From: Escherichia coli
GTDB lineage: Bacteria > Pseudomonadota > Gammaproteobacteria > Enterobacterales > Enterobacteriaceae
Assembly: GCF_003334335.1 (NCBI RefSeq)
Contig: NZ_QOWQ01000011.1
Length of the DNA: 64,000 nucleotides
Strand: one strand, 5' to 3'
In this document: positions 32,962 to 35,051 of the stretch, in pieces
Layout of the letters: each line of letters begins with the position of its first letter
Position numbering within the stretch: the stretch's first letter is position 1
Notes under the pieces: generated by a model
The model's input: the letters and a program-made list of their open reading frames with translations, nothing else
Told to the model about the DNA's origin: nothing
The model's database searches: none
Made by a program: the position numbers and the translations under genes

Positions 32962-33861
32962 TTACGCAGAGAAAAAGGCGATGAGGAGCGGCACTAACAG
33001 GCTAAGAATAAAACCGTGAACAATTGCCGCCGGGACCATATCCAGCCCGCCAGTACGTTGAAGAACGGGCAGGGTGAAATCCATTGATGTGGCACCGCAT
33101 AAGCCCAGTGCAGTAGAGCGGCTGCGGCGAATCAGCCCAGGGATCAACATAATAGCAATCAGTTCACGGGCCAGATCATTAAAAAACGCCGCGCTCCCGA
33201 TTACCGGACCAAAAGATTCGGTCAATAAAATACCGGAAAGAGAATACCAGCCGAAACCGGAGGCCATTGCCAGCGCGGTATTGATGGGGAGATCAAGAAT
33301 AAAGGCGTTAATTAAACCACCAATTAATGAACTGACAACCACCACCACGGCGACAATCATTCCCCGGCGATTAAGGACAATCTGCTTTAAGGTCATGCCA
33401 TTATTGCGCAACTGAATACCAACGAGGAAAAGTAGCAAAATTAACGTGTATTCACTGGCTTCGGTCGCGTGTTGTAAGAAAGCCAGTCCACTTAGACCAA
33501 TGGCAAAACCAATCACTACTACGCCGCACAGTTTTAGCGACTCCAGCGCCATCGCAATACGCGACGGGAGTTTTTCTTGCTGATGGTGGTTGCGCCACGG
33601 CAGGCCTCGCTCCAGCCACATCAGGGCGGCAATATTACACAGTAAAATAACGGTAATACTGACGGCAGAATAATGCAGAATCGCCAACAGGTTACTGGCG
33701 AGGTTATCGAGAAACGCCAGACTGATACCCATAAAAAAGAGAATAAGGTAAACCATCCAGCTTAATAGCTGATTAATAACTTTTAACGCAGCTTGTTGGC
33801 GAAGCGGAATGAGGTAACCCACAATCAGGGGAACCAGAATGATTAACAGCCCAGAAAACAT
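32962..33861 (-). CDS. lysO: L-lysine exporter LysO (YbjE), 299 aa
   Basis: ATG at 33859-33861 gives MFSGLLIILVPLIVGY; an in-frame upstream GTG at 33909 would give a 315-aa form. Confidence 0.85.
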   Translation of the reverse strand: MFSGLLIILVPLIVGYLIPLRQQAALKVINQLLSWMVYLILFFMGISLAFLDNLASNLLAILHYSAVSITVILLCNIAALMWLERGLPWRNHHQQEKLPSRIAMALESLKLCGVVVIGFAIGLSGLAFLQHATEASEYTLILLLFLVGIQLRNNGMTLKQIVLNRRGMIVAVVVVVSSLIGGLINAFILDLPINTALAMASGFGWYSLSGILLTESFGPVIGSAAFFNDLARELIAIMLIPGLIRRSRSTALGLCGATSMDFTLPVLQRTGGLDMVPAAIVHGFILSLLVPLLIAFFSA

Positions 33862-34019
33862 GAAAACCCAGTCCTTGCAAAGATGAAGTCGAAATGCGCG
33901 ATGACACACTACTGAAAGCGGAAGGACGAGTAAAGTTGCAATTAAAAGGAAATGTTATGCATAAGGAGCAGTAGAGTATTCGTTTTCATTTAAAGATATT
34001 CTTGCGCTTTAATTACAAA

Positions 34020-34285
34020 CTGCACCGATGTTGGTGGCGTCAAAATCGCCGAGGCGTTCCCTGAAGGCCGGGGCAGCCCACATGGATGTGGGCTGAGGGC
34101 GCGTTTTACAGGGATGTTACCTCGCGCCCGACCCGGTAGCCGTAAGGGATAAGTCGAGGGCACCGCGCAGCGGCGATTTTGTTCGCCAGAGCCCGGGGGT
34201 GCAGGGGGCGGCGGCGATTGGCCGCCCCCTGCGCGCTCCTTGCGCCAGTGGCAATATGTTGCTTAGCTCATGAAAGGAGCGCAAC
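34020..34285. other. GC-rich, hairpin-dense non-coding block between lysO and aqpZ
   Basis: Three near-perfect inverted repeats: CAGCCCACAT-GG-ATGTGGGCTG (34074-34095), GCAGGGGGCGGC-N8-GCCGCCCCCTGC (34201-34232), GCGCTCCTT...AAGGAGCGC (34233-34282); no ORF of 60 aa or more on either strand. Confidence 0.6.
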
Positions 34286-34315
34286 AAGATGATGAATCAA
34301 CATATAACAACATCT

Positions 34316-34346
34316 TAAAAAAAGGCCTGACATTACGCCAGGCCTT
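34316..34346 (-). terminator. Intrinsic terminator of aqpZ
   Basis: 8-bp stem AAGGCCTG/CAGGCCTT hairpin followed on the minus strand by a T7 run, directly after the aqpZ stop. Confidence 0.8.
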
Positions 34347-34355
34347 CTGCGTTAA

Positions 34356-35051
34356 TTAATCACGCTTTTCCAGCAGGGTCCGGTAAATCAGACCACCGAT
34401 AATGCCGCCGACAATTGGCACCACCCAGAAGAACCACAGTTGTTCTAATGCCCAGCCGCCCTGGAAGATAGCAACCGCGGTGCTGCGCGCCGGGTTAACA
34501 GAAGTGTTAGTCACCGGAATACTAATTAAGTGAATCAGGGTTAAGGCCAGACCAATAGCGATCGGCGCAAAACCTGCCGGCGCGAATTTGTCGGTTGCGC
34601 CGTGGATCACCAACAGGAAACCTGCACTCAATACCAGTTCAACTACCAGCGCGGAAAGCATGGAATAACCGCCTGGTGAATGCTCGCCATAACCGTTAGA
34701 AGCAAAACCGCTGGCTGCCGCGTCAAAACCCGTTTTACCACTGGCAATTAAATACAGCAGCGCCGCTGCAACAATACCGCCGACAACCTGGGCAATTACG
34801 TAGCCAACGACTTCTTTTGCCGGAAAACGTCCGCCAGCCCATAAACCAATAGTGACCGCCGGGTTAAAATGACCACCAGAAATATGACCAACAGCAAAGG
34901 CCATCGTCAGAACGGTCAGACCGAACGCCAACGCCACGCCGGCAAAACCAATGCCTAATTCCGGGAAGCCTGCGGCCAGTACAGCACTACCACAGCCACC
35001 AAAAACAAGCCAGAAAGTACCAAAACATTCAGCTGCTAATTTTCTGAACAT
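34356..35051 (-). CDS. aqpZ: Aquaporin Z, 231 aa
   Basis: ATG at 35049-35051 gives [24 protein letters not shown]; NPA motifs present (HFNPAVT, NPARS). Confidence 0.92.

Follow-up and report, generated by a model that had tools for sequence, protein, structure and literature searches.

What is the hairpin-rich block that separates lysO from aqpZ in the 64,000-nucleotide stretch of Escherichia coli DNA analysed here (the window)? Both genes are on the - strand (lysO, 32962-33861; aqpZ, 34356-35051), and the G+C content of the block between them (34020-34285) is 0.65, compared with 0.37 in each flank and 0.52 window-wide. The longest ORFs overlapping the block are 57, 56 and 37 aa. An earlier note on this DNA, which had described a GC-rich, hairpin-dense and non-coding region without an ORF of 60 aa or more, lying between the lysO start and the aqpZ terminator, was accurate in these respects: the inverted repeats are in place, lysO starts at 33861, and the terminator hairpin occupies 34322-34346. 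The complete intrinsic terminator of aqpZ (34317-34346, - strand) consists of the stem AAGGCCUG/CAGGCCUU (inverted repeat I15, 34322-34329/34339-34346) followed by a U-run, and was missed by a consensus scan because its loop is 9 nt long. A Shine-Dalgarno-like AAGGAG at 34274-34279 (+ strand) is followed by ATGATG at 34289, which begins a 9-codon ORF (MMNQHITTS; all within 34274-34318). This ORF is probably fortuitous because other copies of the element described below do not conserve what follows GGAGCGCAAC.

The 12-bp stem singled out in that note corresponds to hairpin 3 (34201-34232): the arms of inverted repeat I3, GCAGGGGGCGGC/GCCGCCCCCTGC at 34201-34212/34221-34232, are 12 nt long and 100% complementary according to the repeat finder. 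On the same (+) strand, perfect 10-nt arms at 34074-34083/34086-34095 form the stem of hairpin 1, perfect 9-nt arms at 34233-34241/34274-34282 (I11) belong to hairpin 4, and an outer inverted repeat with 16-nt arms (34041-34056/34166-34181) pairs at 88%. Folding of 34012-34300 yielded -144.6 kcal/mol on the + strand (shuffle mean, -118.8) and -131.4 kcal/mol on the - strand (shuffle mean, -105.9). With z of approximately -5 on each strand and none of 200 shuffles matching the native energy, the folding check proposed in the note found both strands far more stable than shuffled sequence.

The block is TRIP1a, a repeat already catalogued in E. coli K-12, where TRIP1 has three copies. Addition of 880,996 converts a window coordinate into that of MG1655 (NC_000913.3), and 34020-34285 becomes 915016-915281. 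We identify the block as TRIP1a because these mapped coordinates are exactly those published for TRIP1a, a repeat of Rudd 1999 (NC_000913.3 915016-915281; Li et al. 2024, Genes 15:236, PMC10888264). The length (266 bp), the G+C content, the position of the repeat 31 bp downstream of the aqpZ terminator and the reported conserved 'double-Y' RNA fold also agree between the published object and the block (Li et al. 2024, PMC10888264). The earlier note had listed another intergenic repeat family among its options, had proposed a BLASTN search for copies and had allowed that the block might turn out to belong to a dispersed repeat family already known; this is what was found, since K-12 and the other E. 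coli genomes searched all carry paralogues. The repeat was detected by blastn in each of 5,426 complete E. coli genomes, at a median of 3 and a maximum of 10 places per genome, and it is therefore a dispersed repeat. Within the window, an nhmmer profile built from 91 family members matches only at 34015-34285 (+ strand, E = 6e-63), and a pattern search likewise found a single copy. The K-12 paralogues, read in MG1655 and aligned with TRIP1a, lie between putP and efeU (TRIP1b) and between dusC and yohP (TRIP1c). TRIP1b is 146 bp long and lacks exactly 125 bp of the interior, and TRIP1c, on the dusC side, is oriented opposite to TRIP1a.

Previous work on these repeats found either orientation at the loci of TRIP1a (3448 forward, 1255 reverse) and TRIP1c, reported large inversions arising from recombination between copies, suggested cruciform formation as well as the RNA fold, and left the function and origin of TRIP1 open (Li et al. 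2024, PMC10888264). That study treats TRIP1 in E. coli only and makes no mention of IS4, MITEs, CsrA, Klebsiella or Citrobacter. The identity of the block was thus already on record, and what we add to it by observation is the range of the family, its covariation, the head-to-head pairing of its modules, their IS4 ends and target duplications, and a resemblance to the Rfam motif TwoAYGGAY; these wider results may be of use to those who study bacterial repeats.

TRIP1 resembles REP/BIME, ERIC/IRU, Box C and REPIN elements in being dispersed, intergenic and hairpin-forming and in preferring the 3' ends of genes. The earlier note was right that the block is unlike REP: a permissive Rfam scan of 33700-34500 gave no REP or naRNA4 match, and a like scan detected real REPs at other loci. 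Nor is there sequence similarity to any of these elements, and the TRIP1 arms are ~10 times longer than a REP. Box C is a ~56-bp repeat of the type CCCTCTCCC...GGGAGAGGG..GGGTGAGGG. No sequence of this consensus is present in 33963-34335, and the suggestion of a Box-C-like family was not borne out. RSA/BEE95, described as a repeat of 150-151 bp with 6 copies in K-12, differs in size and copy number from TRIP1b (146 bp, one copy), and identity between the two is unlikely. A phage origin, such as a C4/P4-type RNA, was likewise rejected, the block having no match to phage sequences. In Citrobacter gillenii (L111 1189-1373), a C4 antisense RNA match (77.9 bits), together with isrK and c4-a1b1 matches, lies ~500 nt from a family copy; this site is probably a remnant of a P1/P7-type prophage and unrelated to the TRIP1 repeat.

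The position of the block upstream of lysO and its dense structure had raised the possibility of a leader or small RNA, and nothing else in our data speaks for a lysine-responsive leader or riboswitch of lysO. The Rfam Lysine model gave no match at E values up to 10 in 33700-34500; the only match to a cis-regulatory family, TwoAYGGAY, is below threshold and on the strand opposite to lysO. The same sequence stands beside unrelated genes (putP/efeU, dusC, alx/sstT and copA), and its orientation relative to lysO depends on the strain. With no Rfam family at threshold, a variable orientation at the locus and no promoter or terminator consensus framing the block, the leader or sRNA proposed in the earlier note has no positive support; the lysO leader is contradicted, and a lysine-responsive element here is scarcely credible. 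A candidate regulatory RNA is thereby removed from the window, where its place is taken by a catalogued repeat that is not part of lysO control.

The aqpZ-lysO locus itself varies among E. coli lineages: in some the element is inverted, in others it has the form with the 125-bp deletion, and the inverted alleles have different flanks. No empty aqpZ-lysO spacer was found among the sampled E. coli genomes, in which the matches to a 408-bp flank query spanned 586-761 bp. TRIP1a occupies the same site in E. albertii, and the putP-efeU and dusC sites are occupied in Citrobacter too; therefore, either the insertions are old or the sites have been reused. The TRIP1a sequences of K-12 and E. albertii share 94.6% identity, whereas the third codon positions of lysO are 73.7% identical between the two. 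At the alx-sstT spacer, where L011 (753-1369) carries TRIP1d, K-12 (L012 3046-3445) has an unrelated segment of ~190 nt with a Box C-like CTCCCTCTCCC..GGGAGAGGG..GGGTGAGGG. K-12 alx-sstT was accordingly rejected as a clean empty site, and we regard this spacer, on its sequence, as a replacement hotspot rather than as a simple filled/empty site.

These locus data also bear on the possibility that the block acts as DNA, as a cruciform, as a protein-binding or insulator site that would keep the aqpZ and lysO transcription units apart, or as the supplier of the -35 element of a lysO promoter. The AT-rich stretch that the earlier note called promoter-like (33910-34020) is a plausible candidate for a promoter. 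Either strand of the block forms very stable hairpins, cruciform formation has been suggested (Li et al. 2024, PMC10888264), and an in vitro RNA-polymerase binding screen predicted a lysO promoter, TTGACG-19-TGTAAT, that extends across the left boundary of the element (34012-34043, - strand), with its -35 in the element head (Shimada et al. 2014). However, we count a spacer of 20 nt between TTGACG and TGTAAT, compared with the published 19, and our sigma-70 consensus scan gave no match at 34012-34043; a literature search found no mapped lysO transcription start. The TTGACG is not conserved in the family, and a matching -10 is missing at TRIP1c and TRIP1d. Moreover, lysO is kept in lineages with an inverted or shortened element, and its expression therefore cannot depend on the K-12 arrangement. 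We know of no protein that binds the block, and consider a DNA-level role of this kind improbable to a marked degree.

Comparison with other copies divides the window copy into several parts, all read on the + strand. The single 'arm' module defined by the coordinate match and the nhmmer profile (34020-34285) is preceded by an A/T-rich 'head' extension (33963-34019) that travels with the element, as seen from the break of homology between K-12 and the inverted L001 allele at 33962/33963. This extension is homologous to the central spacer of complete head-to-head pairs in other genera, and GCnCTTTA..ACAAA motifs are common to the head flanks of TRIP1a, TRIP1c, TRIP1d and a Pseudocitrobacter MITE. 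The core domain (34040-34181), which is the portion absent from TRIP1b, has an outer stem (34041-34048 with 34174-34181) around a multi-branch loop and two GGA-loop hairpins. Hairpin 1 (34074-34095), CAGCCCAC-AUGGAU-GUGGGCUG, has an ANGGAN loop with a C-G closing pair, and hairpin 2 (34097-34129; helix 7/8 in the statistics below), GGGCGCG...ACAGGGAUGU...CGCGCCC, has the loop AGGGAU. Besides the two loop GGA sites, there is one additional single-stranded GGA site, AAGGGAUAA. Two 18-nt copies of direct repeat D2 (34056-34073 and 34181-34198) are spaced by 125, and the 125-bp core loss is best read from the sequence as recombination between them; similar core deletions recur in other genera, as indicated by split profile matches. 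Downstream of the core are hairpin 3, with its 12-bp G+C stem, and hairpin 4 (34233-34282), GCGCUCCUU...AAGGAGCGC, which in other genera reads ACGUUCAC...GUGAACG(G/U). A tail extension (34286-34335) follows, which a three-way alignment suggests to contain a putative, degenerate IS4-type terminal repeat, ...CTTAA...CCTGACATTA.

The family extends well beyond E. coli. An exact-pattern scan of species-representative genomes found at least 120 family loci, and the genera among the matches listed are Citrobacter, Klebsiella, Raoultella, Enterobacter, Leclercia, Lelliottia, Silvania, Pseudocitrobacter and Trabulsiella, in addition to E. albertii. A few scan matches were on evident contaminant contigs: L020, L096 and L112, labelled Pseudobutyrivibrio, Ensifer and Bacillus, carry E. 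coli-type TRIP1 on contigs of <600 bp with coverage <1 and look like E. coli contamination of those assemblies. Family copies sit near gene 3' ends; among the matches listed, 35 are in convergent spacers, 14 in tandem sense, 13 in tandem antisense and 3 in divergent contexts. Clustering of the neighbouring genes, among the same matches, revealed no transposase or other recurrent neighbour beside the elements, the clusters being ordinary families (ABC ATPases, LysR regulators, TorA-like enzymes and PutA) or orthologous contexts.

The secondary structure of the arm is conserved across these genera. We aligned 91 distinct full modules of 268-281 nt from the matches listed and scored 54 hand-defined base pairs; the strand and covariation statistics were taken from these hand-curated helices only, since a permissive helix finder produced too many spurious helices and the alifold structures were biased to their own strand. 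Over the 54 pairs, 98.1% of cells are paired, and 27 pairs have changed on both sides (572 cells). Slid controls reached at most 42.5% paired cells and at most 80 both-side-changed cells. Both-side changes in half of the pairs, far above the controls, indicate that the structure has been maintained by compensatory change, which answers positively the earlier proposal to look for covariation across Enterobacteriaceae. Both sides have changed in 7 of the 8 pairs of hairpin 1, in all three basal pairs of hairpin 3, and in 3 of the 7 pairs of hairpin 4 (helix 11).

While the stems of hairpins 1 and 2 vary, their loops stay A-N-G-G-A-N with a closing C-G, which fits the CsrA/RsmE hairpin consensus. 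In the 91 copies (among the matches listed), the hairpin 1 loop is AUGGAU in 46, AGGGAU in 27, AGGGAC in 11 and AGGGAA in 5, and the hairpin 2 loop is AGGGAC in 28, AGGGAU in 26, AUGGAU in 18, AAGGAC in 6 and AUGGAC in 6. Wobble pairs lean to the + strand, with G-U in 88 cells of 22 pairs compared with A-C in 12 cells of 6 pairs (binomial p = 0.004 on pairs, the events being few and not independent). There are tandem G-A mismatches on the + strand, and the consensus fold is better on this strand (-74.8) than on the - strand (-57.3).

Outside Escherichia and Klebsiella, the modules occur in head-to-head pairs that form units of 564-791 bp. A profile search of the loci found, among the matches listed, 47 head-to-head pairs and no tail-to-tail pair, with a gap of typically ~65 nt. 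The conserved region upstream of each module in Citrobacter is in fact a second, diverged and inverted module. Complete units begin with TAATGCCAGTCAGTTAAGCA and finish with TGCTTAACTGACCAGCATTA. Compared with the end of K-12 IS4 (MG1655 4502090-4503515, which is itself within a 12-bp duplication), the unit ends match at 14-20 of 20 positions, including 20/20 in L073, 19/20 in L108 and 18/20 in L119; beyond ~20-25 nt at the ends, complete units have no homology to IS4. IS1 ends, considered at first (14/23 bases shared with the IS1 sequence), gave way to this exact IS4 match. Nine of the 13 complete elements are flanked by duplications of 11-12 bp, perfect in L027, L071, L073, L078 and L108 and one base off in L028, L074, L085 and L119; the four other elements have none. 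The duplicated targets are small hairpins, which gives TRIP1 a target preference, namely small terminator-like hairpins.

With the same terminal inverted repeat and the same 11-12 bp target duplications as IS4 (insG), the complete units are, to judge from their sequence, IS4-type MITEs, presumably transposed by the IS4 transposase. They differ from IS4 in having no transposase gene and an interior that consists of two inverted structured arms of ~270 nt. TRIP1 would thereby gain an origin, as the arms of an IS4-ended MITE, and a likely mobilising enzyme. The layout recalls REPINs, in that the doublet appears to be what replicates, and the singlets resemble decayed remnants. Unlike REPINs, however, the ends and duplications of the TRIP1 units point to an IS4-family DDE transposase, not to a RAYT.

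How does the solo copy in the window relate to these units? A complete element of Pseudocitrobacter (L078 5272-5905) has an E. coli-type arm that can be aligned to TRIP1a and TRIP1c over the whole length between the head motif and GGAGCGCAAC, and all three finish with ..CATTA, 47-50 nt after GGAGCGCAAC. The putative, degenerate terminus of TRIP1a can therefore be placed near 34335, inside the aqpZ terminator hairpin, with a remnant of the terminal repeat (...CTTAA..CCTGACATTA) at 34316-34335. Around TRIP1a, which has no second end, we found no left terminal repeat, target duplication or trace of a second arm; unlike IS4 and IS-derived MITEs, this copy has a single arm and no more than one end, itself degenerate. 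The case for its MITE origin is made by homology with complete elements elsewhere.

We consider it probable that TRIP1a is a solo arm, an immobile relic of an IS4-type MITE that now serves as passive DNA and as a recombination substrate. A complete element consists of an IS4 terminal repeat, a tail, an arm of ~270 nt, an A/T-rich spacer of ~65 nt, the inverted arm, a tail and a second IS4 terminal repeat. It inserts at small terminator-like hairpins and duplicates an 11-12 bp target, as IS4 does, and such insertion and duplication imply mobilisation in trans by an IS4-family transposase, a step that we infer from the ends and the duplication length. Escherichia has single arms only, some of which have also lost the 125-bp core through the 18-nt direct repeat. 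Having lost one end, a solo arm would no longer be mobile, in keeping with TRIP1 positions that are fixed in E. coli and with the shared site in E. albertii. If a full pair could lose either its left or its right arm, the repeat would be left in either orientation with different flanks; this may account for both orientations at aqpZ-lysO and offers a possible explanation for either orientation of the repeat at one locus in different strains. We infer arm loss as the source of the E. coli solo arms, and the immobility, the passivity and the overlap with the terminator are to be read in the same way.

TRIP1a would most likely lie as passive DNA between the 3' end of the aqpZ transcript on one side and the promoter of lysO on the other. 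Its known effect is that of a substrate for homologous recombination, through which large inversions are formed with TRIP1c. The aqpZ terminator, the descending half and U-run of which overlap the putative terminus, may owe part of its sequence to the outer end of the element. A passive relic does not explain the compensatory conservation of the arm structure or the conserved C-ANGGAN-G loops across genera, and what has preserved folding and loop sequences inside a MITE is a real puzzle. It also does not explain the strand bias of the wobble pairs or the slow divergence of TRIP1a relative to lysO third codon positions, part of which could be due to gene conversion among copies.

An RNA function of the arm would bear on these features. 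The core of TRIP1a (34040-34179, + strand) matches the Rfam family TwoAYGGAY (RF01731) with 30.6 bits and E = 0.011, below the gathering threshold of 43. TwoAYGGAY is the sole Rfam family matched repeatedly, in every genus tested, and other copies and genera score 30-37 bits (30.4-37.2) on the same strand, all below 43. The likeness includes two adjacent A-Y/R-GGA-Y hairpins, an enclosing stem, an AG linker and then CG, purine-rich internal loops and an occurrence in gamma-proteobacteria. The differences are the score, an outer stem unlike that of TwoAYGGAY, and the second loop in K-12: hairpin 1 (AUGGAU) fits AYGGAY, whereas AGGGAU in hairpin 2 has R for Y. Among the matches listed, AUGGAY is found in 46 of 91 hairpin 1 loops and in 24 of 91 hairpin 2 loops. 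TRIP1 is in this way linked to an orphan Rfam motif, for which a published motif analysis proposed binding to CsrA.

On this basis, the TRIP1 arm may be modelled as a TwoAYGGAY-class structured RNA, read from the + strand, in which two C-ANGGAN-G hairpins ~30 nt apart would bind a CsrA dimer; we give this a small chance. The MITE might then spread CsrA-binding modules to gene 3' regions or carry two divergent small-RNA genes, which seems doubtful to a similar extent. In favour of an RNA are the TwoAYGGAY matches in every genus tested, with the same strand and layout, the conserved A-N-G-G-A-N loops with their closing pair together with the published CsrA proposal, the wobble bias, the tandem G-A mismatches and the better consensus fold of the + strand, and the slower divergence of TRIP1a than of synonymous sites. 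However, every TwoAYGGAY score is below the curated threshold, and scans of the window and of three complete elements showed the arms to be framed by neither a sigma-70 promoter nor an intrinsic terminator consensus. In tandem contexts the element has no preferred orientation, being sense to the gene upstream 14 times and antisense 13 times among the matches listed. TRIP1a in K-12 is antisense to both neighbouring genes and lies on the far side of the aqpZ terminator, and TRIP1b has been retained although it lacks the core. CsrA CLIP-seq tables of E. coli K-12 contain no peak for dusC, ybjE, aqpZ or yohP and no entry at TRIP1 coordinates, with dusC and ybjE unbound and unaffected by csrA, and these genes are likewise absent from the tables of 3' ends in Adams et al. 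2021. The wobble bias would also fit a strand-specific single-stranded DNA step. TRIP1a also differs from CsrB/CsrC-type sRNAs in having two loop GGA sites plus AAGGGAUAA, no promoter or terminator consensus and no CLIP-seq entry. We regard as rather improbable the full proposition that TRIP1 arms are CsrA-binding TwoAYGGAY RNA modules spread by an IS4-type MITE to enterobacterial gene 3' ends. If it were true, a transposable element would distribute sites for a global post-transcriptional regulator, and the orphan motif TwoAYGGAY would acquire a function as well as a vehicle.

As for promoters within complete elements, a scan found none in the central spacer; a -35/-10 geometry can be read by hand in some Silvania and Leclercia copies and not in others. 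In Citrobacter arms, a promoter-like TTTACA-17-GAAAAT recurs in antisense, directed toward the head (L119 7527-7555 and L028 889-917, - strand).

Several copies of the family are associated with other repeats or are locally multiplied. The putP-efeU spacer of MG1655 houses two repeat families: a REP hairpin (L009 4116-4152), with a sub-threshold naRNA4 match of 28 bits, lies ~120 nt from TRIP1b. Many of the family copies in Leclercia, Silvania and Enterobacter have Box C-like hairpins directly beside them. In Klebsiella, REP regularly precedes the family copies, and K. pneumoniae L004 (1051-1760) contains two full tandem arms 437 bp apart, each preceded by a REP-like hairpin and the same 45-nt head sequence. 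In Leclercia adecarboxylata NCTC13032 (L106 9811-10790), four truncated head fragments of ~90 nt stand in tandem behind one full arm, at a spacing of ~190 nt, a region that, judged by its sequence, is a local array of partial elements.
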